A stretch of DNA of 64,000 nucleotides from contig PLZJ01000002.1 in assembly GCA_003152105.1 (NCBI GenBank), positions 172,257 to 236,256 of the forward strand. The letters run 5' to 3'. The first letter of the stretch is position 1. Each line of letters begins with the position of its first letter. The DNA is from Candidatus Levyibacteriota bacterium. GTDB taxonomy: Bacteria; Patescibacteriota; Microgenomatia; Levybacterales; UBA12049. The notes beneath the pieces were generated by a model. That model was not told the origin of the DNA and did not search any database. It saw only the letters and a list, made by a program, of their open reading frames with translations. A program made the translations under genes and the position numbers. Of this stretch, positions 30,356 through 45,494 are shown one piece after another.

Positions 30356-30383
30356 GTTTCTAACATCCTCTACTCCTGCGAGC
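30356..30383 (+). repeat. cassette-boundary repeat R1
   Basis: GTTTCTAACATCCTCTACTCCTGCGAGC. Confidence 0.8.
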
Positions 30384-30400
30384 TTTTATTTGGATACTTA

Positions 30401-30781
30401 TTACACAGTCTTTTGTAATATTATCAGAGGTGCTTTACCTAGTCTTTCTTCAGCTATATCGGCGAACCTTCTGCTTCTCTCCAAGACTGAAAGTGAATCA
30501 TTTCCAATATCGGTACTAAGTATATAGCCAGCTTGAGTTAGATTAATAGGTTCTTGATCTTCTCCTACTTCTCGTTCTTCTACAACTTTAGCCTCTATTC
30601 CAACCTCATTACCATAATGTACATAATCTATGGCTACATGATAAGACATCCTTATGGTCCTTGCAGTTTCTTCATCAACTAATTCTTTTGTTCCAGATGT
30701 CAAATCGATTTTATCAATAGGTCCCTCAAAGAAGTCTGGCGAATAGATAGATCTATAATATTGGGTTTCAGCATGACTCAT
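30401..30781 (-). CDS. cassette gene: hypothetical protein
   Basis: ORF between R1 and R2; TATAAT 8 nt upstream of its ATG. Confidence 0.45.
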   Translation of the reverse strand: MSHAETQYYRSIYSPDFFEGPIDKIDLTSGTKELVDEETARTIRMSYHVAIDYVHYGNEVGIEAKVVEEREVGEDQEPINLTQAGYILSTDIGNDSLSVLERSRRFADIAEERLGKAPLIILQKTV

Positions 30782-30808
30782 ATAATTGCAGTATTATACC
30801 ATGAGACA

Positions 30809-30835
30809 AGTTCTAACATCCTCCACTCCTGCGAG
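30809..30835 (+). repeat. cassette-boundary repeat R2
   Basis: GTTCTAACATCCTCCACTCCTGCGAGC. Confidence 0.85.
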
Positions 30836-30876
30836 CAATATTAGTGTTAAATTAGAGGAATTTATTTTTCAAGAAG

Positions 30877-31521
30877 TTATTGATAGCCTTCCCAATGGCC
30901 ATCTGAAAATCCTCTAATCCTAGGATGTGTTGAGAATTTATACCCCTCTTGATAGTAAAAATTTAAATCACACCAAAATACTATTTCGGAATTATGATTA
31001 ATATAGTAATACCCATTTCTTAATGCCTTTACAGTCCATCCTGAACTTGCCATCGTCGAAGTATTTGAATTATTTCCATCACAGACAAGACCAGGATAAT
31101 TATGTTGTCCTGTATAAGGATTTGGCCTATTAGCAAATTTAACCGTAGAGTTTTTATTATTGTAGTTAAACGCAAAATCTATTTGACTATAATTTCCTAC
31201 ATAGTTAAGGTTCAAAAAATATTTTGATGGTGGATTTGGAGTATAAGCTGAAAAATAAGTGTCATAAATATATCCAGTAGTACTTGTTTGAGATTGAGTG
31301 CTTGCACTTATTTTAGAAAAATCCATCGGTTCGCCTAGAGGAGGAAGAGATTCTTTATTGCTATTTATAGATATTGGCATAACTGTTGGTTCAAATCCTG
31401 CTGCATTTTGTTGTGTTTGGTGAGATATATTTACTCCCCACACAGTTAATGGTACCGCTACAACAAGTGCTGCAATTACTAAATAACCAAGAAAACTTGA
31501 ATTCTTCTTACTTTTAGCCAT
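30877..31521 (-). CDS. cassette gene: secreted or membrane-anchored protein
   Basis: N-terminal TM helix; Asn/Tyr-rich. Confidence 0.45.
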   Translation of the reverse strand: MAKSKKNSSFLGYLVIAALVVAVPLTVWGVNISHQTQQNAAGFEPTVMPISINSNKESLPPLGEPMDFSKISASTQSQTSTTGYIYDTYFSAYTPNPPSKYFLNLNYVGNYSQIDFAFNYNNKNSTVKFANRPNPYTGQHNYPGLVCDGNNSNTSTMASSGWTVKALRNGYYYINHNSEIVFWCDLNFYYQEGYKFSTHPRIRGFSDGHWEGYQ

Positions 31522-31578
31522 ACGCTTATACCTCTACAATAATAAATATAGGATTATATGTCAAGAGCTGAGATTAAA

Positions 31579-31606
31579 GGTTCTAACATCCTCCACTCTT
31601 GCGAGC
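31579..31606 (+). repeat. cassette-boundary repeat R3
   Basis: GGTTCTAACATCCTCCACTCTTGCGAGC. Confidence 0.85.
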
Positions 31607-31667
31607 ACCTCTTTAGCCTCAAAATAGTCTTTTTTAGCCTCACATGAGGAGAATAGGATTCGTACCC
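31607..31667 (+). repeat. long junction extension (L-type) after R3
   Basis: ACCTCTTTAGCCTCAAAATAGTCTTTTTTAGCCTCACATGAGGAGAATAGGATTCGTACC. Shares AGCCTCAAAATAGTC...TTTTAGCCTC...GAGGAGA.TAGGATT.GAAC with 6 other junctions. Confidence 0.7.
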
Positions 31668-31678
31668 TGTTTTGATAC

Positions 31679-32323
31679 TTGAATGGACTTAGTTTAAAAT
31701 TTCATATTGCATTTAAATCAAAATATACATATAATCCTAACGCTATTATGAGTGTAGAAATTACAAGACCAATTGACCCAAGATACCAAGCAAAGCTAGG
31801 TGAAGCATCTGTTCCAGGCTGGATTGGCCTAGGTGAGAGACTTCAATTGGGGAACTTAGAGCCATATAGAGTGGCAAATCAAAGGCCAAAAGAAGGAGAA
31901 GGTAAAGTAGGCTTTGTAGTTCCGTTTGAAGTGGAGGAATTAGGTAAAGGAGAGATAAGACTTGTAGAAATAGAAAGCTCACAGGAGCAAATTGATGGTA
32001 TTCCAGTAGAGCTTATAGGTGATTATGGAACAGAGTATGGAGTTTTTATAACTTTAAATGAAGTGGGTTTTCCTCAAGTTCCAGAAGTTTGGCTATATCA
32101 TCCTCATAGACCAAGATTTATTGCAGAAGTTCGGACTGATAAAACTGACGACCCACTTGTAAAAACAGCTAATGTTGACAATATTTGGAAAGATATAGAT
32201 GATATAAGTCGTAAACTTGCAATTAGAGAATCTGATCTTCCACTTATAATGTTTGGAATACAACAAGAATGGTCAACCGACACAACAACTCCTGGTAAAA
32301 AACCTCAAATGTGGCAAGACTAA
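31679..32323 (+). CDS. cassette gene: hypothetical protein
   Basis: ORF between R3 and R4. Confidence 0.45.
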   Translation: MNGLSLKFHIAFKSKYTYNPNAIMSVEITRPIDPRYQAKLGEASVPGWIGLGERLQLGNLEPYRVANQRPKEGEGKVGFVVPFEVEELGKGEIRLVEIESSQEQIDGIPVELIGDYGTEYGVFITLNEVGFPQVPEVWLYHPHRPRFIAEVRTDKTDDPLVKTANVDNIWKDIDDISRKLAIRESDLPLIMFGIQQEWSTDTTTPGKKPQMWQD

Positions 32324-32335
32324 GTGAATAACCAT

Positions 32336-32362
32336 GTTCTAACTTCCTCCACTCCTGCGAGC
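32336..32362 (+). repeat. cassette-boundary repeat R4
   Basis: GTTCTAACTTCCTCCACTCCTGCGAGC. Confidence 0.85.
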
Positions 32363-32438
32363 TTTTTCATACAAAACTTATAAATTAATTAACTATCTTG
32401 ATGTTAACATTGTTTCTGCTATACTTATTTATCAAATT

Positions 32439-32774
32439 ATGAATCCAGAATTTGAGTTCAATAGACAGGTAGCCATAAATAAGGAAGCATTAAAGCAAGG
32501 AATTACTCTTGAAGATAAATTAAAACAAGTTATAAAAGTTGGGGAAGGTGAGCAAAACCCAAACATGCGCTTAGATGATCCATATATAGTTATAGGTGCG
32601 TTAGGCGTACGCAATGGAAGTATGTGTATATTTGGAACATTTCAAACTGTAGAAGAAGCTTTAGACTTTAGGACAATACTACGTGTTAGAGAAGATCAAT
32701 TAGTTACCGATGGACAAACCGAAAGAATGGCAGTATTTGCCTGTAATAGAAAAGGATTCTTACTTATTGATTAA
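32439..32774 (+). CDS. cassette gene: hypothetical protein
   Basis: ORF between R4 and R5. Confidence 0.45.
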   Translation: MNPEFEFNRQVAINKEALKQGITLEDKLKQVIKVGEGEQNPNMRLDDPYIVIGALGVRNGSMCIFGTFQTVEEALDFRTILRVREDQLVTDGQTERMAVFACNRKGFLLID

Positions 32775-32777
32775 AAT

Positions 32778-32805
32778 AGGGTTCTAATTTCGTAAGTTCC
32801 AGAAC
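32778..32805 (+). repeat. degenerate repeat remnant
   Basis: GGGTTCTAATTTCGTAAGTTCCAGAAC; only the 5' GGTTCTAA part is conserved. Confidence 0.35.
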
Positions 32806-32837
32806 TAAATTTACCACTTTAGAGGCAAAAAGATATA

Positions 32838-32863
32838 TTCTAACAACCTCCACTCCTTTGAGC
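32838..32863 (+). repeat. cassette-boundary repeat R5
   Basis: TTCTAACAACCTCCACTCCTTTGAGC. Confidence 0.75.
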
Positions 32864-32869
32864 AGCAAA

Positions 32870-33775
32870 TCAATTATATTTTATTTCATCTAATACTTCT
32901 GCTACTTTCATAGGACTATGCCATGCAGTATCTCCATGATCTTCAATGCGATAAATAATTGATAACATAGTTTGTACAAAACTCCATTGTAAAATTCTAT
33001 TTCTTTCAAAGTTTAATTCATCAGCAAGTATTTCTATACGTTTAATTAATATTTCTTTAAGGTTTGTTTTTTTTGCCAGAGTAGGATACGGATTTCGCAT
33101 CATAGCTCCTGTTTCAAAACATGGATCTCCAACAATTCCATTTGGATCAATTGCGAGCCACCCTTCACGATCAGATGATAAGATATTACCCTGGTGTAAA
33201 TCACCATGCATAACAACTATATTTGACGTAGAGCTAATTAAACCATTTAGCATAAATTCAGTCTTATCTAGTAAATATAGAGAGAGTGGGTTATTAGATC
33301 CAGAAAATCTTTTTTTATATTTAGGTATATGACTAGAAAGCTCTGATACAAGTTTAAAATCATGTTTTTCTGGAACTTTTCTACTAATTCTTTTTATTAT
33401 CGAAGCTAGGATTTTGGTTTGTGTTTCATCCTCACTAAGTTTATTTAATCTTTTGCCAGGTACAGCTTGTTCAAGTAGCATTGTCATATTTTCATCATTG
33501 CTACTTATCAAATTTATGCTACCTTCACCATTAAAAAGTTTTAATGCTGCAACTTCTGATAAATAGCCCTCGTTACCTGGGAAATCTATTTTTATTACTA
33601 ACTTATCTCCAGTATTTCTAGTTGCTGGAGCTACATAGTTGTATGACAAATCATAGGGTTTTCCTATTTTTAAATTCCAATCTTTTTCAAAATATGTTAA
33701 CAGATTTGGTATATTATCTAACCATTCTTGTCCTCCAGTACGATTTTTTATGTCGTGTAAAAAATTCTGGTTCAT
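32870..33775 (-). CDS. cassette gene: aminoglycoside/small-molecule phosphotransferase (APH) family kinase
   Basis: Catalytic loop HGDLHQGNIL and IDPNG...GDPCFE, typical of the APH/choline kinase fold. Confidence 0.6.
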   Translation of the reverse strand: MNQNFLHDIKNRTGGQEWLDNIPNLLTYFEKDWNLKIGKPYDLSYNYVAPATRNTGDKLVIKIDFPGNEGYLSEVAALKLFNGEGSINLISSNDENMTMLLEQAVPGKRLNKLSEDETQTKILASIIKRISRKVPEKHDFKLVSELSSHIPKYKKRFSGSNNPLSLYLLDKTEFMLNGLISSTSNIVVMHGDLHQGNILSSDREGWLAIDPNGIVGDPCFETGAMMRNPYPTLAKKTNLKEILIKRIEILADELNFERNRILQWSFVQTMLSIIYRIEDHGDTAWHSPMKVAEVLDEIKYN

Positions 33776-33804
33776 AGCTACAAGTATATCATTCCCAGAA
33801 TCTG

Positions 33805-33832
33805 GGTTCTTACGTCCTCAACGCCTGCGAGC
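33805..33832 (+). repeat. cassette-boundary repeat R6
   Basis: GGTTCTTACGTCCTCAACGCCTGCGAGC. Confidence 0.75.
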
Positions 33833-33875
33833 TTAAATATTTGTAAAAGTTAATAACATATGATAATATCCACGC

Positions 33876-34235
33876 ATGACTGAATTTGAACCTATACCCG
33901 GCAATGAGCCTCAAGTTGAACCAACCCTTGAGGATTTATTAATATCAAGAAAAGCTATATCTTGTCAAATACCTCAATCTGAGCTTATTGATTATACCCA
34001 GGCAGGAGAAAAAACAGGTACTACTGTAACAATTATTGCACAGCAAGGAGAAATGTTTAAACACTATAACAGCGGTAAAAGATGGAATTTGGAACCTATT
34101 TGGGGAGAACATCTCATACATGAGCAAGAAGGAATAGAAGATGTAAGGGTATCTGAAGGAAATATTGCGATTGCTATTCAAAGATCCCAGGACAATAATG
34201 ATCTTGGAGCTTTTTGGAGAAAATTAAAAGCATAA
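33876..34235 (+). CDS. cassette gene: hypothetical protein
   Basis: ORF between R6 and R7. Confidence 0.45.
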   Translation: MTEFEPIPGNEPQVEPTLEDLLISRKAISCQIPQSELIDYTQAGEKTGTTVTIIAQQGEMFKHYNSGKRWNLEPIWGEHLIHEQEGIEDVRVSEGNIAIAIQRSQDNNDLGAFWRKLKA

Positions 34236-34238
34236 AAC

Positions 34239-34265
34239 GTTCTAACATCCTCCACTCCAGCAAGC
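34239..34265 (+). repeat. cassette-boundary repeat R7
   Basis: GTTCTAACATCCTCCACTCCAGCAAGC. Confidence 0.8.
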
Positions 34266-34325
34266 AACTATCCAGCCTCAAATTAGTCTTTTTTAGCATT
34301 GCTTGAGAAAAGTAGAATAAGAACC
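34266..34325 (+). repeat. long junction extension (L-type) after R7
   Basis: AACTATCCAGCCTCAAATTAGTCTTTTTTAGCATTGCTTGAGAAAAGTAGAATAAGAACC. Confidence 0.65.
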
Positions 34326-34346
34326 TTAGTTTGATATACTAGTCTT

Positions 34347-34772
34347 ATGAAAAACACAATTTTTCTTGCCTCAAGCATGGATTTCTACAAAGAACTAGTT
34401 GAAATTGAAAAGCAATTGGAGTTAAAAGGATTTAAAGTAGATATTCCATATTCTGCTCAAACAATGAAGAAAAATAATGATTTTGAGGTTGCACACTTTA
34501 AAGGAGTTTTTACACATAAACAAAAAGGAGGATTTATTCATAGTAATTTTGATAAGATTGCTAAATCTGATTCACTTTTAGTTATTAATAATGATAAAAA
34601 GGGAATTAAGGGATATATTGGTACAAATGTACTGATGGAAATAGCAATTGCATTTTACTTTAAGAAAAATATTTATATTTTGAACCCAATTGAAGATAAC
34701 GCATCATTTACAGAAGAATTATTCGCTTTTGGAGTCAAGTTTATTAATGGAGACTTAGATAATGTTAGTTAA
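34347..34772 (+). CDS. cassette gene: hypothetical protein
   Basis: ORF between R7 and R8; GATATACT promoter-like box upstream. Confidence 0.45.
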   Translation: MKNTIFLASSMDFYKELVEIEKQLELKGFKVDIPYSAQTMKKNNDFEVAHFKGVFTHKQKGGFIHSNFDKIAKSDSLLVINNDKKGIKGYIGTNVLMEIAIAFYFKKNIYILNPIEDNASFTEELFAFGVKFINGDLDNVS

Positions 34773-34779
34773 GTAATAT

Positions 34780-34806
34780 GTTCTAATTTCCTCCACTCCT
34801 GCGAGC
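34780..34806 (+). repeat. cassette-boundary repeat R8
   Basis: GTTCTAATTTCCTCCACTCCTGCGAGC. Confidence 0.85.
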
Positions 34807-34818
34807 AAATTTATCTAG

Positions 34819-35448
34819 TTGACAACCTTTCAATTGTTATTCATATTATTAATAATGCCAAAGTTTAAATCAAAAAGTACAAATAAAAAAGGCTCTTATG
34901 ATCTATTTAATAAACACAAAAATCTTAAATGGTTAATCCCTATTTTAATTTTAGCTTTTCTTTTTCTGCTTTTTGTTCATCATGCCAGAGAAGAACTGGG
35001 AGTTAATATGGATACTTCAGTATATATATCTCACAATAAACAATTAAACGTAGCAAACTGGCAAACATATACAGATTTAACTAATGGTTTTAGTTTTAAA
35101 TATCCAGATAATTGGATTAAAGTTGATGATCCTACAACTGAAAATGGACCACAGGTTAGTTTTTTTCTTAAAACTGACCCTCAAATAGTTACTACAGAAA
35201 CTATTAATGGTACTGAACAGCTTATGTTAAATGTTGTGCCTGATTCTGATACCATACAAAGTTTACTACAAGAATTCCCTCACTATATAAATATTAATGG
35301 CAAGGAAGCAGCATGTGACGTATCTCCTACTAAAATATACTGTAATGTAAAACTTAATAAATCAACGCTATTAATATTACAAAGTCCTCGTTCCGATGGA
35401 GTTAAAAATTTTGCACTTATAACAACTTCGTTTATTTTTAGTCACTAA
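34819..35448 (+). CDS. cassette gene: membrane-anchored extracytoplasmic protein
   Basis: N-terminal TM helix (LIPILILAFLFLLFV). Confidence 0.45.
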   Translation: MTTFQLLFILLIMPKFKSKSTNKKGSYDLFNKHKNLKWLIPILILAFLFLLFVHHAREELGVNMDTSVYISHNKQLNVANWQTYTDLTNGFSFKYPDNWIKVDDPTTENGPQVSFFLKTDPQIVTTETINGTEQLMLNVVPDSDTIQSLLQEFPHYININGKEAACDVSPTKIYCNVKLNKSTLLILQSPRSDGVKNFALITTSFIFSH

Positions 35449-35455
35449 TTTGACA

Positions 35456-35483
35456 GATTCTAACGTACTCCACTCCTGCGAGC
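35456..35483 (+). repeat. cassette-boundary repeat R9
   Basis: GATTCTAACGTACTCCACTCCTGCGAGC. Confidence 0.85.
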
Positions 35484-35487
35484 TTCA

Positions 35488-35847
35488 TTATTGGGCTAAT
35501 TTACTTTTAAAATAAGCTTTTAGTGAATCTTGATCTTCTCCAGGAGCAATAGGAGGGGGAGCACCATTTGGGGGAACTTCTAAATCTCTATGAAAAGATT
35601 TAGGTAATATATCACTTGGTAAAGTCATTATGTCATCAATGTTAGGTAATATTGTATCAAGTTCTCCAACTTGTCTTGCAGGTAATGTTACTTCTTGTCC
35701 TCGTACTAATATTGTTGCAGTTCCCTTAAATACGCTTGTTCTTGCTAGTTGTCCTATTTCTCCTTTATTTGTATGAATGCTACCATTAGTTCCCTTCATT
35801 GTTAAAGCATCAAATCTATTTGCTATTGCTTCAACTATTCTGCTCAT
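35488..35847 (-). CDS. cassette gene: hypothetical protein
   Basis: ORF between R9 and R10. Confidence 0.45.
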   Translation of the reverse strand: MSRIVEAIANRFDALTMKGTNGSIHTNKGEIGQLARTSVFKGTATILVRGQEVTLPARQVGELDTILPNIDDIMTLPSDILPKSFHRDLEVPPNGAPPPIAPGEDQDSLKAYFKSKLAQ

Positions 35848-35888
35848 AAACTCTATTATATAACTTCTTATTAAACAATCAAGTAATA

Positions 35889-35916
35889 GGTTCTAACGTC
35901 CTCCTTTCCTGCGAGC
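35889..35916 (+). repeat. cassette-boundary repeat R10
   Basis: GGTTCTAACGTCCTCCTTTCCTGCGAGC. Confidence 0.85.
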
Positions 35917-35976
35917 AACTACTCAGCCTCAAAATAGTCTTTTTTAGCATCTCTGGAGGAGACTAGGATTAGAAAC
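35917..35976 (+). repeat. long junction extension (L-type) after R10
   Basis: AACTACTCAGCCTCAAAATAGTCTTTTTTAGCATCTCTGGAGGAGACTAGGATTAGAAAC. Its right arm is an inverted imperfect copy of GTTCTAACGTCCTCC. Confidence 0.7.
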
Positions 35977-35995
35977 TTCTGATATAATACACCTC

Positions 35996-36415
35996 ATGGA
36001 TTCAGAAAGAGAGCAAGTTAAACCTACTCGAAAACCTTATGATCCTGCTGAGTTAAGTTATGAAGCTAAGTTTGATTTTGACCAGATGACTCGAGAGGAT
36101 TTAGTAAAAGCTAGGTATAACGGGCCCAATAGTAAATCAATAACTGATGCTGATCATAATCCTATTGAAATGTTAGATTTAAGATTTGGGTGGCATGTGC
36201 TTAGTTTAAGATCACCTGAATTTGATGGAAAACCTGATGCTTCTGCAGAATCATATATAGATATTACAGACCAATTTAGAGGTTTTAAGCTAAAAGGATT
36301 ACCAGAGCTTATAGATGATGGTCATAAAGCTAGATTCCAGCTTATTGGGTCAGAAGGAGAAGTTTTACAAATAGATACCCCTTCTTATGGTTATGTTAGA
36401 GGATATGACATGTAG
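35996..36415 (+). CDS. cassette gene: hypothetical protein
   Basis: ORF with GATATAAT 8 nt upstream. Confidence 0.45.
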   Translation: MDSEREQVKPTRKPYDPAELSYEAKFDFDQMTREDLVKARYNGPNSKSITDADHNPIEMLDLRFGWHVLSLRSPEFDGKPDASAESYIDITDQFRGFKLKGLPELIDDGHKARFQLIGSEGEVLQIDTPSYGYVRGYDM

Positions 36416-36417
36416 CG

Positions 36418-36445
36418 GGTTCTAACGTCCTCCACTCCTGCAAAC
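36418..36445 (+). repeat. cassette-boundary repeat R11 (3' end diverged)
   Basis: GGTTCTAACGTCCTCCACTCCTGCAAAC. Confidence 0.8.
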
Positions 36446-36454
36446 TCAACAAAT

Positions 36455-36490
36455 CAAAAAAAACTCACTTACATAGTTAACCAAGGGGAG
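36455..36490 (+). repeat. motif B copy 1
   Basis: AAAACTCACTTACATAGTTAACCAAGGGGAGCTTAG; second copy at 47305-47337. Confidence 0.5.
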
Positions 36491-36497
36491 CTTAGTA

Positions 36498-37046
36498 TTA
36501 TCTAAACTTACCAATCTTAGCTATTTCAACTAATTTAGCCCAAGGTACATGAAAAGTAGTCGAAACATTAGTTAATTCAGGGAAACCCATTGCTCTAAAT
36601 CTACTAATCCATACATCGTAACTAGTGTTGAGTTCTGAGGTTTTTAATCTTGGCAATTTATTCTGCATTAAAACTTCTCTGGCTTCATCCAAACTTACGG
36701 CTGAACTTGTGTTTACCATTAAAGAATCATAGGCAAGTATACCAGCTGCAATATCTTCTATCTTTTTCCTGGTTTCTCCTAGTTTTGCATCTTCATTTTC
36801 TCCACCCATAATATGTAGTCTTGCAAGCTGAGGCTTACTTAACATATCATGCCAATCTAGCCATAAAATATCTTCCTGAGTTTGGCCATGATCTACAGAA
36901 GCCAAATGAGTAGTTATGCCATAATCTATGGCAAGAGGTGATAATCCCATATGCCATTGTCTGTCACCGCTTTCAAACGAATGATTTAAATGTTGGACTA
37001 TTTCAATGGGACCTTGTGAGTCAAATTCCATGCCTGAATCAGTCAT
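36498..37046 (-). CDS. cassette gene: hypothetical protein
   Basis: ORF between R11 and R12. Confidence 0.45.
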   Translation of the reverse strand: MTDSGMEFDSQGPIEIVQHLNHSFESGDRQWHMGLSPLAIDYGITTHLASVDHGQTQEDILWLDWHDMLSKPQLARLHIMGGENEDAKLGETRKKIEDIAAGILAYDSLMVNTSSAVSLDEAREVLMQNKLPRLKTSELNTSYDVWISRFRAMGFPELTNVSTTFHVPWAKLVEIAKIGKFR

Positions 37047-37070
37047 AAAAGTATTGTAGCATAATATGTA

Positions 37071-37094
37071 TTAACACCCTCCACTCCTGCGAGC
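37071..37094 (+). repeat. cassette-boundary repeat R12 (5' end degenerate)
   Basis: TTAACACCCTCCACTCCTGCGAGC. Confidence 0.75.
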
Positions 37095-37154
37095 AACTAT
37101 CTAGCCTCAAAACAGTCATTTTTAGCCTCGTTGGAGGAGACTAGATTAGAACCT
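37095..37154 (+). repeat. long junction extension (L-type) after R12
   Basis: AACTATCTAGCCTCAAAACAGTCATTTTTAGCCTCGTTGGAGGAGACTAGATTAGAACC. Confidence 0.7.
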
Positions 37155-37174
37155 TCTGGTATAATAGCAACCAA

Positions 37175-37684
37175 ATGTCAAAAGAAATACCAACCCAAAA
37201 CCCGTTAGATCAAGCGTACGAAGAAAAACCAAAAAGATGGTATGAAAATCAAGTATTTGGAAATGGTTTACTCTTCAATAGCGCTCTTGTTTCAAGTAAT
37301 ATAGCTTATATTGCATTTATACACAATTATTCATCATTAACACGACTTGCAGGTGCATCTGTTTATATATTAAGTACTATCGCCGATAGATTAAGTACCT
37401 ATAGGGCTTTAAACAGTATTAAAGAGGCAAAAGATAGCGGAATTGAAGTAATTCATAAGGAACAAAATCCTTTATTAGTTAGTAAAGAGAACCCGCTTAA
37501 GTTGGAAAAACCAACAAAAATCCATGTTGGAAATTTGATAGGCTTAGGTTTGTCAACCCTTACGCTAGGTTCTGCAATGCCAATTTCAGCATACCAATTA
37601 GTTTATGCTGCAAACAATGAGAGAATTAATAGACGATACAGAAGAGCTATATGTATTTTTAGTGCTAGTCAAAATCGGGAATAG
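37175..37684 (+). CDS. cassette gene: hypothetical protein
   Basis: ORF with GGTATAAT upstream. Confidence 0.45.
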   Translation: MSKEIPTQNPLDQAYEEKPKRWYENQVFGNGLLFNSALVSSNIAYIAFIHNYSSLTRLAGASVYILSTIADRLSTYRALNSIKEAKDSGIEVIHKEQNPLLVSKENPLKLEKPTKIHVGNLIGLGLSTLTLGSAMPISAYQLVYAANNERINRRYRRAICIFSASQNRE

Positions 37685-37722
37685 AATCATTAGGTATATA
37701 ATTAGCCTACATTAACGGAATT

Positions 37723-37749
37723 GTTCTAACATCCCCAACTCCTGCGAGC
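37723..37749 (+). repeat. cassette-boundary repeat R13
   Basis: GTTCTAACATCCCCAACTCCTGCGAGC. Confidence 0.8.
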
Positions 37750-37780
37750 AGCTTAGCCTCATATGATATAATGCTCAATT

Positions 37781-38122
37781 ATGGGAAAAGAACAGCATCC
37801 ACTTGATGACCCTAATGTAGAGGCAGTTATACAAGGTAAGCAAAGTCCTAGTTGGCACAAATACCAAGATTCCGAAGATTTTATCGAGAAAGGCTTTCCA
37901 TTTAATGAAGGCTTTCCTAAAACAAGCCCCTTAAGTCTAGAACCATTTAATCTTATACTCAGAAATGGTGTTAGAGTAGTAGGTTATGTAGATTTCTCTA
38001 CTCAGTATAGGTCGGAAGGACTGTCATGGATGGATGAGCAGGGTCACTATCTTTCAAGTTATACAGTTGTTGGTTGGCAAAAGCAAGGAGATCCAATTGG
38101 CTTCGGTACTCAACAAAAGTAA
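37781..38122 (+). CDS. cassette gene: hypothetical protein
   Basis: ORF with GATATAAT upstream; its stop TAA is immediately followed by R14. Confidence 0.45.
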   Translation: MGKEQHPLDDPNVEAVIQGKQSPSWHKYQDSEDFIEKGFPFNEGFPKTSPLSLEPFNLILRNGVRVVGYVDFSTQYRSEGLSWMDEQGHYLSSYTVVGWQKQGDPIGFGTQQK

Positions 38123-38150
38123 GTTCTAACATTTCTCCACTCCTGTGAGC
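38123..38150 (+). repeat. cassette-boundary repeat R14
   Basis: GTTCTAACATTTCTCCACTCCTGTGAGC. Confidence 0.8.
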
Positions 38151-38151
38151 C

Positions 38152-38856
38152 TCATTTAATGAATCTAAATGTATTAGCCATTTGATAAAGAGTTTGTTCG
38201 TAGTTAGGAATATCACTAGAATTTGCAGTTAAGTTTTCGTAACCTATAATTACAGCAGATGCATTCCCATCAGAAGAGTATGTTGTTGGTTTAACTACAT
38301 AGTAAATAAATTTTTGACCGTTTTGACTACTTCCATCTCCTGCAACAAATCCTGTTAATTTTCTCATTTGGTATCCATTAAGGTTAATAGTTGAAGAATT
38401 TACTATATTATCGCATTCGGCTTTACATTGTTCAGGATCCCATTCTATGGTTGTAAAAAAATAAGGACTTTTATAATAATTATCAGAATTTGCCAGTTTG
38501 ATTGTAAAAAACATGGTGCCAGGAAAATCTCTTTTTATTACATAAAGGTTTGGAGAATATTCGATTTGATATTTAAACTCATCATTTGCAGCATAGATAT
38601 TCCAACCCGTGCTTTCATCAATTGTAATTAGTGGTGTTGGTGTGATACTTGCTGTTTTGTTAATAGGATTTGATTTTATATTGGTTATATTACTTAATGT
38701 TGTAGGATTTAAGGTATTAAGCTGTTGATATTTCATGCCGATTAAAAATCCTACTAATGGAAAAACAATAAACAAGATTATGGCTAAAGTTTTAGATAGA
38801 GGAGTAATAGTTGTTAGATTTTTAGGTAGAGTCATATTTAAACTATAGTTTAGCAA
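38152..38856 (-). CDS. cassette gene: membrane-anchored extracytoplasmic protein
   Basis: N-terminal TM helix (LAIILFIVFPLVGFLIGM). Confidence 0.45.
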   Translation of the reverse strand: MLNYSLNMTLPKNLTTITPLSKTLAIILFIVFPLVGFLIGMKYQQLNTLNPTTLSNITNIKSNPINKTASITPTPLITIDESTGWNIYAANDEFKYQIEYSPNLYVIKRDFPGTMFFTIKLANSDNYYKSPYFFTTIEWDPEQCKAECDNIVNSSTINLNGYQMRKLTGFVAGDGSSQNGQKFIYYVVKPTTYSSDGNASAVIIGYENLTANSSDIPNYEQTLYQMANTFRFIK

Positions 38857-38873
38857 CTAGATATGGTCAAGTA

Positions 38874-38901
38874 GGTTCCAACATCCTCCACTCCTGCGAG
38901 C
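38874..38901 (+). repeat. cassette-boundary repeat R15
   Basis: GGTTCCAACATCCTCCACTCCTGCGAGC. Confidence 0.85.
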
Positions 38902-38942
38902 TCCATCTTGATTAAAATAACCAATTGTGAAATAGTATTGGT

Positions 38943-39569
38943 ATGGATCCAAATACTGCTCAACCTTCTCAGTCAGTAAATCAAAAAACACCACCAATTA
39001 ATGAGCCACAATTTCTTTCAAAACATTTTTCATTTACTCGAATCTTACTAATATTATTGATTACTCTTATTTCAGCGTTTCTATTTGGAACAATAGGGTA
39101 TTTCATAGGGAAATATTCAAGTTCTCAGTCCTCAGACATACAGTATACTTTTACAAAATCTCAACCAATTAAACCTTCTCCAACTTTTATATCAATAACA
39201 CCTAGCGTTTCACCATCGCAAACCCCTGCTGAAACCTCAGGTTTATCTGGCATAGATAGCTCAACTCCTCAAGATTTTGCAACTTATATTACAGCTTTCT
39301 ATAAACAAAAACAAGCTAGTTGCGATATTGAAGAAATATCCGTAGATAATTCTAAAATAATTAGAGATAGTTTTGCTGAGACACAGGAAGGTTGTGGAAC
39401 TGGATGGATAGGATTCTACGCAAAGGTAAATGGATCTTGGGTTGAAGCATTTACTGCTCAGGGAACACCAACTTGTGCTACGGTAAATAAATATTTTTAT
39501 ACTAAAGAACTAATTCCTGATTGTACGGTTAATCCACAAATTTCTCCAATTCCAAATACTAACCCCTAA
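38943..39569 (+). CDS. cassette gene: membrane-anchored protein; N-terminus paralogous to 47386-48207
   Basis: EPQFLSKHFSFTRILLILLITLISAFLFGTIGYFIGKYSSSQSS versus EPKFISKHFNFKRVLLVLLVVLITASIFSAIGYLLGISQSSSS in 47386-48207. Confidence 0.5.
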   Translation: MDPNTAQPSQSVNQKTPPINEPQFLSKHFSFTRILLILLITLISAFLFGTIGYFIGKYSSSQSSDIQYTFTKSQPIKPSPTFISITPSVSPSQTPAETSGLSGIDSSTPQDFATYITAFYKQKQASCDIEEISVDNSKIIRDSFAETQEGCGTGWIGFYAKVNGSWVEAFTAQGTPTCATVNKYFYTKELIPDCTVNPQISPIPNTNP

Positions 39570-39600
39570 TTACCATATTCAAATTCTAAAATAAAGATAA

Positions 39601-39627
39601 GTTCTAAAGTACTCCACTCCTGCGAGC
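39601..39627 (+). repeat. cassette-boundary repeat R16
   Basis: GTTCTAAAGTACTCCACTCCTGCGAGC. Confidence 0.85.
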
Positions 39628-39677
39628 TCGTCTTAATCTCATTAACTTTGCTTCTGGTATACTAAATCCATATCATT

Positions 39678-40475
39678 ATGCTTGATATATTCTTGGTAAA
39701 ACTACTGTTAACCTTTATAGTTGCAAGTATTTTTATAACTGCTAATACAATACTTGCCGAAAAAGTAAGTCCTAAAATAGTCGGATTCATAGGAGGAATA
39801 CCAAATACAGTTTTAATCTCACTACTTTTTATTGGAATTACCCAATCTCCTTTAATTTCTTCTCAATCAACTACTGTAATTCCAATTATTATGGGAATTG
39901 ATGCATTATTTATTGTTATTTATGTCTATTTATCAAAATATAGTTTCCTTGTAGGATTTTTATCTGCCTTACTAGTGTGGTTTGTCTTAGTTAGTATTCT
40001 TGTGTTTATTAAGTTTAACAACTTTAGTCTATCATTAGCAGCCTTATTAATACTTATGGTTCTTAGTTACTTCTTAGTTGAACATGTTATTAAGACAAAA
40101 ACTATCTATAACAAAAAGTATAAGTTTTCACTAGCAAACATTATATTTAGAGGTGTCTTTAGTGGAACAATAGTTACTTTAGTAGTTATATTTGCAAAAA
40201 TAGGAGGGCCACTTTTTGGTGGCATAGGTGCTTCTTTCCCAGCAGCAATGATCTCAACTATGATAATCACAAATAGAGCTCAAGGAATTGAGTTTTCTAG
40301 ATCAGTAATGAAAATATTAATGATTTCAGGCCCTGTAAATGTAGCTGTATATGCAACAGCAGTTAGATTTCTTTATCCTGAATACGGCTTACTTTTAGGA
40401 ACAATATATTCACTACTTATTGCATTAATATCCACCTATTTGACCTACAAGTTCGTTGTAAAAAGAGTTGCCTGA
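39678..40475 (+). CDS. cassette gene: polytopic membrane protein
   Basis: About 8 TM helices. Confidence 0.45.
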   Translation: MLDIFLVKLLLTFIVASIFITANTILAEKVSPKIVGFIGGIPNTVLISLLFIGITQSPLISSQSTTVIPIIMGIDALFIVIYVYLSKYSFLVGFLSALLVWFVLVSILVFIKFNNFSLSLAALLILMVLSYFLVEHVIKTKTIYNKKYKFSLANIIFRGVFSGTIVTLVVIFAKIGGPLFGGIGASFPAAMISTMIITNRAQGIEFSRSVMKILMISGPVNVAVYATAVRFLYPEYGLLLGTIYSLLIALISTYLTYKFVVKRVA

Positions 40476-40494
40476 AGTTTTATAATGCCAAGTA

Positions 40495-40522
40495 GGTTCT
40501 AACGTCCTCCACTCCTGCGAGC
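40495..40522 (+). repeat. cassette-boundary repeat R17
   Basis: GGTTCTAACGTCCTCCACTCCTGCGAGC (exact consensus). Confidence 0.9.
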
Positions 40523-40551
40523 TTCAAAATACCTCATGATATAATTAATTC

Positions 40552-41025
40552 ATGGTAGAGCAATCTAGTGCAAATGAAAGAATATCTCCAGCTATTCGTC
40601 CTATGACCCTGGATGATGTTAATGAAGTCTATATTATTGGCTCATCAACTCCAGAGTTTTCAGCAGGAGATGCAGCAACATTTTGGGAAAGAGATGAACT
40701 TGAAAGATGGGTTACTCTGGGAGTAGATGATGTCTTACTGATAGCTGAAGTGAATGGACAAATAGGAGGATTTTTACTAGCAAAATACCATGTGCCAACA
40801 AAATTAGGTGCAATTCATGACGTATTTACTAAACCAGAATTTAGACGAAATGGGGTAGCAGAAGCACTTGAGGAAGAAGCTATACTTCAATTAACTCAAA
40901 AAGGGGCAACTTATATCTATTCCGTTACTCAACATGATAATCAAGCATCTATGAACCTTCAAGAAAAAGTAGGCTTTAAAAAAGGAAAACTTATGCAATG
41001 GTTTGAATTAGAACCCGAGAGATAA
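40552..41025 (+). CDS. cassette gene: GNAT family N-acetyltransferase
   Basis: 157 aa; acetyl-CoA-binding-like FRRNGVAEALEEEAI; GATATAAT upstream. Confidence 0.55.
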   Translation: MVEQSSANERISPAIRPMTLDDVNEVYIIGSSTPEFSAGDAATFWERDELERWVTLGVDDVLLIAEVNGQIGGFLLAKYHVPTKLGAIHDVFTKPEFRRNGVAEALEEEAILQLTQKGATYIYSVTQHDNQASMNLQEKVGFKKGKLMQWFELEPER

Positions 41026-41083
41026 ATGTTTTAACTTAGTGGGTTCTCAAACGAATCGCACCAATATGCAAACAATAAAGTTT

Positions 41084-41195
41084 TAACTTGCATCTTCTTT
41101 ATCTCCTCCCACCTCTGTCTAAGTTCTCCAAAGTAGCGTAAATCCTGGAACACAAGGATAATTGAGGTCAAATCTACGGTTATAATAAGATAAGG
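41084..41195 (+). repeat. element C copy 1 (about 110 nt conserved non-coding module)
   Basis: AACTTGCATCTTCTTTATCTCCTCCCACCTCTGTCTAAGTTCTCCAAAGTAGCGTAAATCCTGGAACAC...GGTTATAATAAGAT; second copy at 49855-49960 with about 75 percent identity. Confidence 0.5.
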
Positions 41196-41269
41196 CTCGG
41201 GGAGCTGGGTAGGATGATTAGTTTAGCTTCGTTTAACAACCCAAATTATTGATTTGATATAATCTTTTA

Positions 41270-41914
41270 ATGATTCTTTTTATTGGTGGACCACCTAGAG
41301 TAGGCAAAGGAGTTTTAACAAGAAATTTAAGTAAAAAACTTGGAATTCCATATATTTCTACTGACGCACTCCGTCAAGCAGCTAGAGAACTTCCTGCAAT
41401 ACCCAAAACCGACAATTTATTTAAATCAGAACCCCTAGGTGAAGGAGATAACCAAGAAGAATTTTTCAATAATACAAAGGTAGAAGATATTATTGATTTT
41501 CAAAATAAGGAATCTGAAGAAGTAGCAAGACTTGTTAAGGGTATAGTAGGATATTTCAGTTGGAGTAAAGAGCATTACATCATAGAAGGGGTAGCACTTT
41601 TACCTCGATATTATACCTCAGAATTTATCAAGGAAAATAATATTATCTTTATAGCTGTTGGAAATACTAATTTTGACACATTTTTTAAATTTTCATGGGA
41701 CCATAGAGTTAATGGCGATTGGTTAGGAAAGACAAGTAAGGAAGCATTTGAAAAAGTAATTAAATTTAGTGCTGAATTCAGTAAAATCTTCCAAAATGAA
41801 GCCAATAAGTTTGGCTATCCATATTATGAAGTTAATTCAAAAGATTTTAATAACCATATGACAACTATAACTGAGGAAATTGTAAAGAAGATTAGAAATA
41901 TAGATAGGTTCTAA
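41270..41914 (+). CDS. cassette gene: P-loop NTPase / kinase
   Basis: Walker A GGPPRVGKGV; the stop TAA lies inside R18. Confidence 0.5.
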   Translation: MILFIGGPPRVGKGVLTRNLSKKLGIPYISTDALRQAARELPAIPKTDNLFKSEPLGEGDNQEEFFNNTKVEDIIDFQNKESEEVARLVKGIVGYFSWSKEHYIIEGVALLPRYYTSEFIKENNIIFIAVGNTNFDTFFKFSWDHRVNGDWLGKTSKEAFEKVIKFSAEFSKIFQNEANKFGYPYYEVNSKDFNNHMTTITEEIVKKIRNIDRF

Positions 41915-41933
41915 CATCCTCCACTCCTGCGGC
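41907..41933 (+). repeat. cassette-boundary repeat R18
   Basis: GGTTCTAACATCCTCCACTCCTGCGGC. Confidence 0.85.
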
Positions 41934-42039
41934 ACGATAATGTAACATCAAGATAAGCCCTTTGTATTAATCTAAATGAAATATTTGAACCTTCTAGAAA
42001 CTTCTTAAAGTTTAGTTTAGTATGTTATACTAACAGATA

Positions 42040-42780
42040 ATGCTCAAACAACTTTACTTAGTTACATTTACTTTACTCATCTTTTTCGTTTCACTTTTTG
42101 TCTATATAAAAATTGCTGGTCCGCTTCCGTTTTCAGTTAATTCAGTGACTACATCTAAATCAACAACTTTTGATGTAAGCGGAGAGGGAAAAGTAACTAT
42201 ACAACCAGATGGGGCAAATATTTCTGCAGGAGTCATGGCAAATGGAGCAAGCGTACAACAAGTACAAACTCAGATGAACACGATTATAAACAAAGTCTCC
42301 TCCTCCGAAAAATCATTGGGAATTGACCCAAAAGATATACAAACTGCACAATATAGTGTTACTCCTATATATGATTATTCACTAGGCAGCCAAAATATAA
42401 ACGGATACAGTGCCACGACAACGCTTACCATCAAAGTCCGTGATATTACCAAAATAAACAGCAGTATTGATGCCGCAACAGCAGCTGGAGCAACAAATGT
42501 AGATAATCTTGGTTTTACAAATAGTGATACAACGGTTGCGGAAAACCAAGCAAGAAAGATTGCAGTTGCACAGGCGAAGAAAAAAGCAGAGGATGCCGCA
42601 AGTATAGCGGGATTTTCCTTAGGTAATATTGTTAATTATAGTGAAAATTTTGGAGGTACTCCTCGTATTATGCCACTTAACGCAGAAAATGCTAATATAG
42701 GGAGCGCTCCTGTTACTAAACTTGAACCGGGATCAAATGAAGTACAAGTTGATGTGACTCTAAGTTATGAAATCAGATAA
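42040..42780 (+). CDS. cassette gene: SIMPL-domain (DUF541) secreted protein
   Basis: N-terminal TM helix, then TFDVSGEGKVTIQPDGANISAGV...VQQVQTQMN, typical of SIMPL/26 kDa periplasmic immunogenic protein. Confidence 0.5.
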   Translation: MLKQLYLVTFTLLIFFVSLFVYIKIAGPLPFSVNSVTTSKSTTFDVSGEGKVTIQPDGANISAGVMANGASVQQVQTQMNTIINKVSSSEKSLGIDPKDIQTAQYSVTPIYDYSLGSQNINGYSATTTLTIKVRDITKINSSIDAATAAGATNVDNLGFTNSDTTVAENQARKIAVAQAKKKAEDAASIAGFSLGNIVNYSENFGGTPRIMPLNAENANIGSAPVTKLEPGSNEVQVDVTLSYEIR

Positions 42781-42794
42781 CAACTTAGTTCTCA

Positions 42795-42872
42795 GGTTCT
42801 AAATTGAATCACACCATTTAAAAGTTAATAACTACTTAATTTTCCAAGCTCTATAATCCTCCACACTGCGAG
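42795..42872 (+). repeat. split or degenerate repeat (GGTTCTAA ... about 55 nt ... ATCCTCCACACTGCGAG)
   Basis: Both halves of the consensus present but separated. Confidence 0.4.
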
Positions 42873-42919
42873 TTTGATAGGATTGTAAATTTAGCCTCAT
42901 TTTACAATCTATTTATTGA

Positions 42920-43639
42920 TTAAATAGTTTCTGCTTCTTTCCACCATTCTTCAAATAATTGAGAAAGTATTGCAGCAAATGGGGGATAGGTAATCTTTAT
43001 ACCCATATCTTTTTCGGATTCAGAATGCTTATATGACATAAAATATATGGCTTCAGAGTCATAAATCATAAGTCTTATATGTTTCAAGGCTGATTTTTTA
43101 ACTAAAATTCCATTTTGCTTCCAGTTAGCAACCTGATCAGCATTTTCGCCTGAGTAATCCTGTATTAGCATTCTAGTAATAATGCCTCTCTTTTTCGCCT
43201 CAATAATAGACAACATTGTTTCAGGAGGAATTTCATGTCCAGAACGAAGTAAATCTATTGATTTTACTGTTTTATCTGCTTCTATTGCTGAGATTTTCAT
43301 TAACTCATCACGGCTTTGAATAAAATTAAAGGACAATGGATCAATCTTAGATATCTCATTATTAGGAACTGTACCTAAATTTTCTCTAAATTCCTTTGAA
43401 AACCATTTATTTTGATGTAAGAGAAAAAGCGATAATCCGTCATTAATCGGCTTAGCCATAAATTGAGAAGGATAGCTAGAAGACTTGGCAATTAAACCTA
43501 AATTTAAGAGTTCCTCAGTCAGCCTATATACCACGGTAGGTATCAGCTTAAGCTGTATTGCTAGCTCTCTTGCGTAAAGCGGCCTAGATGTTTTGAGTAG
43601 CACCTTATATATTTCTTGAGCTTGCGGACTCATAGCCAT
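42920..43639 (-). CDS. cassette gene: TrmB-like HTH transcriptional regulator
   Basis: N-terminal winged helix (YARELAIQLKLIPTVVYRLTEELLNLGLI), about 240 aa. Confidence 0.45.
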   Translation of the reverse strand: MAMSPQAQEIYKVLLKTSRPLYARELAIQLKLIPTVVYRLTEELLNLGLIAKSSSYPSQFMAKPINDGLSLFLLHQNKWFSKEFRENLGTVPNNEISKIDPLSFNFIQSRDELMKISAIEADKTVKSIDLLRSGHEIPPETMLSIIEAKKRGIITRMLIQDYSGENADQVANWKQNGILVKKSALKHIRLMIYDSEAIYFMSYKHSESEKDMGIKITYPPFAAILSQLFEEWWKEAETI

Positions 43640-43697
43640 AAGAAGGGTAGTTTAGCATTTTTTTGCTAAAGTATCAAATTTATAGATAATTCTATTT

Positions 43698-44849
43698 ATG
43701 ATAGAAGGTCAACCTTTAGAAGGTATTTTTCTTAATCAAAAAAGAGATAGTCTGTTTCAGCAGGCTGAGCGTGAACTTAGACATGAAGTTAGCATTTATC
43801 GTTTAAAAGATAGATTTGAAGGTTTGCCTAATAATCTAGGAAATATAACTATGCTTGATGCCTCCAATATCCCAGGTTGTCACTATGGTGTTAGAAATGT
43901 GTTTGTGCCTATTATTCATCACTTAGAAGAAGTAGGATTTTCAGTTAAAGATAAGTATGTTGATATCAATCCTGACACAACGATTCTAGTTGAGCCTAGC
44001 ACAGGTAATAGTTGGGTAGCTTTTAGCGATGCGGCTGAGATGTTAGGATATGAGCATATTGTAGTTATGCCTGAAGGTTTGCCTGAGAGTAGGTATAGGC
44101 ATCCAAACGGAAGACCAGTTAAAATTCTAAGAACTCCAAAAGAAGAATACGCTGAAGGCATGCCTAAACAGCTTCAATCTTTAATCATGCAAAACCGAAG
44201 AAGGATAGCTTTGGGTCAAAAAATATATATCACACCTAATCATCCAATTAGCTCTGCAGATATAACTGTAAAAGCAATGGCTGATTTGGGTCGTCAGTTG
44301 GCAGCAAAATTACAAGGCAAGGCTTTTACATTCGTAGGCTCTATGGGTAATGGTGCGAGTATTTGTTCTATAGGTGAATATTTAAAGGAAAACACTGATG
44401 ATGCAAGAGTAATAGCCACAGAATCGTTTAATTATGGTGGAGGATATGATTGGTATGCGAATACGCATAGGAAACCAAGCTATAAAAAATTATATGGAAT
44501 TGATCCAGGAAATCCAATACTTATGAAGCAGTTTGATGCTTTTGGGACTAACGCACCAATAGGTATAGAGCTTCCTCTTCAGAAAAGAGCTATAGAAGGA
44601 GGCTTACTAGATGATTATTCATTATTTACTACACAAGCTACTTTTGATGTTTATAAGTCAATTCCAGGTTTAAGTCAAGAACAGATTAATAATGCATCAA
44701 GTCTTCCTAATCGCAATAAACTACCTCAGTCTTTATATGAAGCATATGGAAACTCCACCTTAGCTAATATAGAAGTTGCATCACAATACACTAATGAAGA
44801 AAGAGAAATAGTTGCAATAGCTTATGATTCGCGAAAGGCGTATTCGTAA
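43698..44849 (+). CDS. cassette gene: PLP-dependent enzyme, cysteine synthase/tryptophan synthase-beta fold
   Basis: GFSVKDKYV (PLP-Lys region like SVKDR), then EPSTGNSWVAFSDAAEMLGYEHIVVMPE matching the fold-type II pattern. Confidence 0.5.
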   Translation: MIEGQPLEGIFLNQKRDSLFQQAERELRHEVSIYRLKDRFEGLPNNLGNITMLDASNIPGCHYGVRNVFVPIIHHLEEVGFSVKDKYVDINPDTTILVEPSTGNSWVAFSDAAEMLGYEHIVVMPEGLPESRYRHPNGRPVKILRTPKEEYAEGMPKQLQSLIMQNRRRIALGQKIYITPNHPISSADITVKAMADLGRQLAAKLQGKAFTFVGSMGNGASICSIGEYLKENTDDARVIATESFNYGGGYDWYANTHRKPSYKKLYGIDPGNPILMKQFDAFGTNAPIGIELPLQKRAIEGGLLDDYSLFTTQATFDVYKSIPGLSQEQINNASSLPNRNKLPQSLYEAYGNSTLANIEVASQYTNEEREIVAIAYDSRKAYS

Positions 44850-44854
44850 AAATA

Positions 44855-44882
44855 GCTTCTAATGTCTGCCACTCCTGCGAGC
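44855..44882 (+). repeat. cassette-boundary repeat R20
   Basis: GCTTCTAATGTCTGCCACTCCTGCGAGC. Confidence 0.75.
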
Positions 44883-44947
44883 TTGGTAGGAATAGCCAAT
44901 TTATCTTCATTTTACAATCTAAATTTCAGGTCTGGTATAATTGTAGC

Positions 44948-45460: not shown

Positions 45461-45466
45461 ATGCCA

Positions 45467-45494
45467 GGTTCTAACTTCCTCCACTGCTGCGAGC
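45467..45494 (+). repeat. cassette-boundary repeat R21
   Basis: GGTTCTAACTTCCTCCACTGCTGCGAGC. Confidence 0.85.

Follow-up and report, generated by a model that had tools for sequence, protein, structure and literature searches.

A gene cassette island at the 3′ end of tRNA-Asn in a Candidatus Levybacteria genome, with a 27-nt repeat that resembles a large serine recombinase attachment arm

The window, by which the whole analysed stretch of 64,000 nt is meant, was AT-rich with a G+C content of ~33% and encoded an RpoD that was ~90% identical to Candidatus Levybacteria / Patescibacteria MAG proteins. The main features of the locus were as follows.

1.5-4.2 kb: dnaA and dnaN
19.5-22.5 kb: dnaG, rpoD and tRNA-Asn
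22423..22495, plus strand: tRNA-Asn (GTT), the anchor of the island (ARAGORN; Rfam 67.8 bits; junction alignment)
22483..24084, minus strand: large serine recombinase (LSR) of 533 aa (Pfam Resolvase 9.5e-23, Recombinase 7.8e-15)
LSR to ~30.3 kb: small genes
30357..52210, plus strand: array of ~30 copies of the 27-mer GTTCTAACnTCCTCCACTCCTGCGAGC, which separates single-gene cassettes

The LSR had an N-terminal RVSS motif and an identical protein was already present in the database. Its ORF crossed the junction with the tRNA gene, with the tRNA-Asn 3′ end encoding the final LSR codons, and the last 23 nt of tRNA-Asn (GGTTCGAATCCTAGTCGCGGAGC) formed the left arm of the recombinase junction. The genes PEMT, OmdA and VIT1, which neighbour tRNA-Asn in related Levybacteria, reappeared in the window at 54-64 kb. 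Because these genes lie beyond ~54 kb, the ~31 kb between ~22.5 and 54 kb is an island inserted at the tRNA-Asn 3′ end of a Candidatus Levybacteria (CPR/Patescibacteria) genome. No arrays were found at rpoD/tRNA-Asn in the Levybacteria relatives L032-L037.

Between tRNA-Asn and the array, an LSR-led integrative element was delimited at 22483-30383, with an approximate right end somewhere in 29.1-30.4 kb. Its genes included DUF5659, DUF3761, DUF2321 and Hypoth_Ymh; DUF5659 was also found in the LSR elements of the related contigs L026 and L040, to which L026 adds Prim-Pol and L040 a sigma-70 region 2-like gene. A match to the LOOT RNA (RF03000) was located inside the element at 26290-26408 on the plus strand (64.2 bits against a gathering score of 46.4) and overlapped the start of ORF 26353-27105. 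At the other end of the island, nested insertion sequences occupied 52257-54200, where an IS481-like transposase fragment (ORF 52307-52990) was interrupted by an IS3-type element with a frameshifted orfA near 53037 and an rve orfB at 53472-54125.

The cassettes were mostly single genes in both orientations, spaced 433-4360 nt from start to start. The cargo included two GNAT acetyltransferases, an APH(6)-like kinase, HicAB and kinase-like proteins, while the majority of ORFs had no Pfam match. The cassette proteins had almost no paralogues within or between arrays, so that cassette boundaries could not be mapped via shared cassettes. A contig from a second, independently assembled sample (L060 1-2336, JGI 3300037222) was 100% identical to window 45855-48190 and had the same cassette order; it was considered as an independent long form of the junctions described below and was rejected, as this identity indicates the same population.

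Boxes of the type TGnTATAAT or TGnTATACT (TGnTATAMT) were found 5-9 nt before cassette start codons, at four long-form junctions and at many short ones. In window 29438-46691, extended -10 matches numbered 19 versus ~8 in shuffles and most of them were located right at gene starts. Examples were as follows.

35980, 37157, 40537 and 44933, plus strand: extended -10 boxes
30801, 33791 and 37061, minus strand: extended -10 boxes

The distance from the extended -10 box to the start codon left no room for a ribosome-binding site, which suggests that near-leaderless transcripts would arise from each such cassette's own promoter. A generic sigma-70 and terminator scan was non-discriminating in this AT-rich DNA (79 sites versus 84 expected).

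The 27-mer was present in 27 clear and at least 3 degenerate copies, all on the plus strand. Its edges were sharp, a single position varied and a weak TAG stood immediately 5′. Pairwise identity was 0.85 over the 27 copies. The repeat starts with (TA)GGTTCTAA and finishes with GCGAGC, and its tRNA-Asn counterpart reads (TA)GGTTCGAA..GCGGAGC. A Xer/dif-type site was rejected on direct sequence reading, since the 27-mer is without dyad symmetry. The sole minus-strand match in the window (GTTCGAAACTCCTCCTACCCCTAG, 24129-24143) was located ~45 nt upstream of the LSR start codon and could be due to chance (0.27 expected).

A metagenome scan with the 27-mer identified two further arrays, L028 and L029. 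At least seven diverged 27-mers were located within 7.8 kb of L028, while L029 showed, in order, a 39-nt tRNA-Asn 3′ fragment, a cassette, a 27-mer and the next cassette, and the L029 array starts directly at the tRNA-Asn end. An 18-mer scan of genome contigs produced just 20 single chance matches, and two 27-mer scans of viral contigs produced chance matches only. Overall, the repeat family was present in five independent contigs and was the only element common to the window and the arrays of other metagenomes (L028, L029, L025 and L038). The earlier note on this DNA had suggested that the junctions with the 27-mer only may be decayed half-sites; the identity of 0.85 over 27 copies and the occurrence in other arrays indicate instead that the 27-mer is the conserved unit.

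At several junctions the 27-mer was followed by an extension of ~60 nt. Seven such extensions had been described from the sequence, and a search for their core AGCCTCAAAATAGTCnTTTTTAGC recovered exactly seven copies with at most one mismatch, all on the plus strand (31615, 34274, 35925, 37103, 46625, 49979 and 52219), where none were expected from shuffles. Six of the seven were directly 3′ of a 27-mer (27-mers at 31580, 34239, 35890, 37068, 46590 and 52184). The copies were as follows.

31607..31666, plus strand: extension after the 27-mer at 31580-31606
34266..34325, plus strand: extension after the 27-mer at 34239-34265, with the most degenerate distal arm
35917..35976, plus strand: extension after the 27-mer at 35890-35916 (GTTCTAACGTCCTCCTTTCCTGCGAGC)
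37095..37153, plus strand: extension after the 27-mer at 37068-37094, with a 1-nt deletion in the distal arm and then TGGTATAAT at 37157
46617..46676, plus strand: extension after the 27-mer at 46590-46616
49971..50030, plus strand: 'orphan' extension after a shortened arm (..TTAGGTTTTGGGAAGC) ending GGGAAGC
52211..52256, plus strand: truncated extension of the last array junction, cut after GGAGGAGA by a transposase-bearing insertion

The orphan copy had a decayed 27-mer ~110 nt upstream, and the truncated copy was cut at 52256 by an insertion sequence. The extension at 35917-35976 was followed by TGATATAAT at 35980 and a start codon at 35996; generally, the module extends as far as the -10 box of the promoter that belongs to the next cassette. 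Only in the copy at 46617-46676 was a T-arm hairpin still complete; it lies on the minus strand (TTAGG TTCGAAT CCTAA). Within the extension, pairwise identity was 0.85 for the core but fell to 0.75 for the distal arm (minimum 0.58), and as all seven extensions come from one genome, selection and recent common descent are inseparable in these values.

The extension begins exactly at the junction breakpoint (..GCGAGC/AACTA.., the slash marking the breakpoint). Its core contains two TAGC/CTC boxes flanking AAAATAGTCATTTTT, and these boxes repeat the junction core GAGC/YTCA, which also opens the recombinase-proximal arm. The box (AGCCTCAAAAT; TAGCCTCAAAAT) was found at the same junction position in L038, in the context GAGC/TAGGGT TAGCCTCAAAATTGACTTTTTA, and in L025, in the contexts GAGC/CCGATTT TAGCCTCAAAAATA, GAGC/TGTG TAGCCTCGTTTT and GAGC/TGCG TAATCTCAAAATTGAC. 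The motif AGC[CT]TC[AG]WWW was enriched at the window junctions, short ones included (GCGAGC/TTCAAAAT). Because this motif resembles the start of the recombinase-side arm, (A/T)TCAGGAC, the extension appears to carry two added copies of the junction core and then an inverted recognition arm. Among the arrays examined, the full long form with the inverted arm was found in this genome only.

Other modules were also found in the right flanks of the junctions. The one designated type B was the following.

41202..41265, plus strand: type-B right-flank module, with only TTTAGCYTCRTT in common with the extension

Homologues of type B were located at 42874-42910 in the window and at 2595-2665 in L028. 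A 116-nt repeat (41088-41203 and 49852-49967, 73% identity) combined the remnant of a 27-mer with a promoter-like CGGT(T)ATAAT site and an arm that is cut short and terminates in GGG(A/G)AGC; its first copy precedes the type-B module and its second precedes the orphan extension. A third right-flank module was found at 36446-36492 and 47291-47337 with 81% identity over 47 nt (..AAAACTCACT.ATATAGTTAACCA.GGGAGCT), immediately 3′ of the 27-mers at 36419 and 47263.

Hundreds of LSR relatives were found in Patescibacteria, and the neighbourhoods of five were compared: L025 (74% identity to the window LSR), L026 (54%), L038 (70%), L039 (65%) and L040 (59%). In L026, L039 and L040, the LSR gene ended at a complete tRNA-Asn, as in the window. 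The LSR of L025 abutted a tRNA-Asn-like 3′ fragment beside a three-junction mini-array of three cassettes with the separators GGTTCTAACATCGTCTATTTCTCGGAGC and GGTTCTAACGTTGTCTATTCCTCGGAGC. In L038, the LSR-side arm (ATTTCAGGACAAAC...; ATTTCAGGACAAACAGGTTGCAAAA) was joined to the 27-mer-like GGTTCTAACTTCCTCTATCAGGCGGAGC in place of the tRNA, and an identical copy of GGTTCTAACTTCCTCTATCAGGCGGAGC was located one cassette to the left, followed by TAGGGTTAGCCTCAAAATTGAC. Alignment of the six junctions (window, L025, L026, L038, L039 and L040) showed a common breakpoint immediately after GAGC. Because the six junctions share this breakpoint, the 27-mer and the tRNA-Asn 3′ end appear to be alternative partners of the LSR arm. 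As judged from these alignments, the 27-mer is a predicted LSR attachment arm that mimics the tRNA-Asn 3′ end, and this is the strongest result of the analysis. The suggestion that tRNA-Asn was the ancestral attachment target was also borne out, with LSR-side sequence joined to a tRNA-Asn end, a tRNA-Asn-like fragment or a 27-mer-like repeat in six contigs.

L026 carries the LSR family without any array, and a search there for an attR-type duplicate of the tRNA end or for the 28-nt arm found none. The sequence GGTTCTAAC beside distant LSR genes (L046, L047 and L049; viral contigs) was tried as a phage attP arm and was rejected, as it lies within an ORF and occurs at chance frequency.

The arms also differed in length, in a way that may correspond to a shift known from serine integrases. 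The distance from GGTTC to GAGC was 28 nt in three arm variants (window, L025 and L038) versus 23 nt in the tRNA end, a 5-nt shift that requires GGTTCTAA to be aligned to the T-loop, whereas MAFFT prefers the variable-loop GGTTCTA with only a 2-nt gap. When the 27-mer was used in a fuzzy search, the tRNA-Asn end matched with 5 deletions exactly. At the sites of large serine integrases, attB has its zinc-ribbon-domain motif 5 bp nearer the crossover than attP does (PMC3783163). Given this shift and the 28 versus 23 nt, the 27-mer looks like an attP-type arm and the tRNA-Asn end like an attB-type arm, an assignment that is held loosely. A large serine recombinase normally needs two arms, in a quasi-symmetric site of 40-50 bp with a central dinucleotide. 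At the array junctions the left arm was conserved and the right flanks were variable apart from a loose YTCA start; in the long form an inverted arm was present, but ~31 nt from the junction.

The distal arm of the extension connects the array to the tRNA gene a second time. The reverse complement of its consensus was identical at 16 of 16 bases to tRNA-Asn 22473-22488 (T-arm), a score reached by none of 2000 shuffles, and single copies had 1-2 mismatches; the proposed likeness to the 3′ part of tRNA-Asn was therefore confirmed. The proposal that the distal arm is an imperfect inverted copy of the 27-mer proved real but modest, with a local score of 19 versus 11.1 +/- 2.2 in shuffles and 10 of 2000 shuffles reaching 19. 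Most likely, the distal arm would be what is left of an earlier two-armed site, or else an accessory arm that is bound weakly.

The same inverted arrangement had led the earlier note to read the composite unit as an attC-like bulged palindrome with a conserved hairpin on folding. DNA folding of the 93-nt composite in the five complete copies gave top-strand z-scores of +0.83 to -0.24, no better than shuffles, and one of the five bottom strands stood out (copy at 46590, z = -2.67); nine of the ten strands had z-scores of +0.83 to -1.1, which gives no support to the expected hairpin. In the two helices that had been proposed, 78.6% of cells were paired versus 78.0% in shuffles, with no excess of compensatory change. 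RNAalifold produced an imperfect hairpin of 29 pairs, but its covariation term (+3.04) was unfavourable, and the minus strand was no better; substitutions in the palindrome break pairs and do not compensate. The arms were the least conserved part (0.75) while the centre AGCCTCAAAATAGTCnTTTTTAGC was nearly invariant (0.85), which is the opposite of the conservation pattern in attC sites. In attC sites the structure is kept and the sequence is variable; in the extension the sequence was kept and the pairing was being lost. Pfam scans of ~80 window ORFs and the gene tables for 12-34 kb showed no tyrosine integrase (Phage_integrase), and the other recombination enzymes in the window were the LSR and DDE transposases only. 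An inverted partner was found at 6-7 of ~30 junctions, and the ends were GTTCTAAC and ATTMGAAC, not RYYYAAC and GTTRRRY. The palindrome would be a by-product of inverted recombinase arms and not a functional hairpin. The earlier interpretation therefore stood in its link to tRNA-Asn and fell in its attC/integron mechanism.

The reading that we favour, at a probability of roughly 0.55, is that the island lies at tRNA-Asn, that the 27-mers would be arms of the LSR and that the extension would be a left-end module of one cassette subfamily, without a folded hairpin site. A cassette would enter as a circle carrying one 27-mer and recombine at the tRNA-Asn end or at an existing arm. The inserted cassette would then have its own 27-mer on the right, with its left end abutting the arm of the neighbouring cassette, and the LSR, supplied in trans, would move the cassettes, as the anatomy of the locus suggests. 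Each 27-mer would belong to the cassette on its left. Since the extension starts at the breakpoint, it would be the left end of the cassette to its right, a module common to 6-7 of ~30 cassettes, and its distal arm would be a decaying inverted copy of the LSR recognition arm (tRNA-Asn T-arm). More broadly, Levybacteria and perhaps other CPR may carry an LSR-run, integron-like gene-capture platform with own-promoter single-gene cassettes at tRNA-Asn and with the long forms as surviving two-armed sites, a tentative proposal that we rate at less than even odds.

As for the enzyme, L038 could equally represent the insertion of an LSR element into a 27-mer that served as a pseudo-attB, in which case the array might be built by another enzyme. 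For the long form, an unlikely alternative is that it is a complete two-armed site of the serine-integrase type, with the 27-mer on the left and CTCGTTGGAGGAGACTAGGATTCGAACC inverted on the right, and that the junctions with the 27-mer only are one-armed. Sites of this class are quasi-palindromic and double-stranded (PMC3783163), and the long form has arms that are inverted copies (p ~0.005; 29 consensus pairs), each with its GGTTC.AA motif at a similar distance from the AGC/ core. However, ~31 nt separate the arms, whereas serine-integrase sites have both arms directly at a 2-nt crossover; the right arm is losing its sequence more quickly than the centre (0.75 versus 0.85), is present at 7 of ~30 junctions only and is shown by no related array.

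Similarly improbable as the chief explanation is that the extension is an expression module (A/T-rich element, -35-like box and possible operator) with an incidental likeness to a recombination arm, although this is compatible with the favoured reading of a cassette left end. Five of the seven extensions precede a plus-strand cassette ORF, four copies have TGnTATAMT right after them with the start codon 6-9 nt later, the L038 box supplies TTGACT 17 nt before TATTAT, and the orphan copy is located just downstream of the CGGTATAAT promoter-like site. On the other hand, in the window the box is TAGTCA and lacks a suitably spaced -10, the working -10 being ~55 nt further on, and -10 boxes of the same quality precede short-form cassettes, which do not have the module. 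An expression role also leaves the exact 16-nt match to the tRNA-Asn T-arm unaccounted for.

That the arm is an inverted tRNA pseudogene fragment, a MITE or an insertion-sequence end spread among the junctions is very unlikely, despite the 16-nt identity to the tRNA-Asn T-arm and the terminal inverted similarity of the unit. ARAGORN found only the tRNA-Asn at 22423, and an Rfam scan of 29-53 kb with E up to 10 found no tRNA or other family in the array. The flanks showed no target-site duplications, the module always begins at the same breakpoint, and the left 'end' is common to >20 junctions that lack the rest. The possibility of an IS end or MITE had been raised beforehand and was not borne out, with no similarity to the two ISs at 52.26-54.2 kb. 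Finally, an integron-like attC site, recombined as a single-stranded bulged hairpin by a tyrosine integrase, would fit the imperfect palindrome in the consensus and an array like an integron in cassette size and cargo (GNAT, APH(6)-like kinase, HicAB and many ORFans), but it is largely refuted and scarcely credible given the shuffle-like fold energies without covariation, the non-attC ends, the lack of an inverted partner at most junctions and of a tyrosine recombinase in the window, and cassettes that face both ways, many with their own promoters.

Comparison with described systems showed partial likenesses. As in integrons, the array is long and in the same orientation, has mostly single-gene cassettes with diverse and mostly unknown cargo, and has one short repeat per boundary with an anchor at one fixed site. 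It differs from integrons in that attC is a structured, sequence-variable palindrome while the repeat here is a conserved 27-mer without dyad symmetry; no IntI was found here, the cassettes face both ways, many carry an extended -10 next to their start codon, the end of a tRNA gene serves as anchor and a serine recombinase is the associated enzyme. With the A118/LI, Bxb1 and phiC31 integrase systems, the locus shares an enzyme with Resolvase and Recombinase domains beside the site (PMC3783163). The alternative left arms here have a distal motif and a proximal GAGC in common and, if GGTTCTAA is aligned to the T-loop, would differ in length by 5 nt, as attP and attB half-sites do. Unlike serine integrase systems, the locus has one-armed sites repeated in tandem by the tens, right arms that vary and units that carry cargo but no recombinase of their own, and we know of no canonical phage serine-integrase system for which the construction of such arrays has been described.

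Among described behaviours, the closest is the accretion of elements in tandem at a single attachment site. SCC composite islands of staphylococci accrete in tandem at a gene 3′ end with short direct repeats. In the tycheposon islands of Prochlorococcus, successive integrations at one tRNA 3′ end push older elements inward, separated by partial tRNAs (bioRxiv 10.1101/2020.12.28.424599). In both, as here, att repeats separate the elements and some units are without a recombinase; these depend on one supplied in trans, as is proposed for the cassettes. They differ in having few multi-gene elements with decaying partial tRNAs or short repeats, while here ~30 single-gene units are separated by a conserved non-tRNA 27-mer. 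A literature search found no description of an LSR-linked cassette array in Patescibacteria, an absence of evidence only as coverage was incomplete.

To our knowledge, no well-described system other than the integron accumulates single genes as mobile cassettes, and integrons rely on a tyrosine integrase whose sites are single-stranded and folded. If true, a cassette array on serine-recombinase arms would mean that gene stockpiling was invented independently, and its short defined sites and enzyme family would be testable as genome-engineering tools. The ~22 kb of cassette cargo is a sizeable investment for a ~1.1-Mb CPR genome. For the attC claim the result is corrective, and the underlying system is more interesting than the palindrome.

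Two further observations were made on the related contigs. The 15-mer GTGAGTAGCATGGTG was shared by window 51597-51640 and L025 5975-5950 (minus strand), where it is located in non-coding DNA at the left end of a HicAB cassette (window) and of a cassette unrelated to it (L025). In L040, at 7400-7600 in the minus-strand view, a partial copy of the tRNA-Asn 5′ half was found upstream of the complete tRNA-Asn and was followed by a G+C-rich palindromic repeat (CCCGCCGAAGGCGGG twice).
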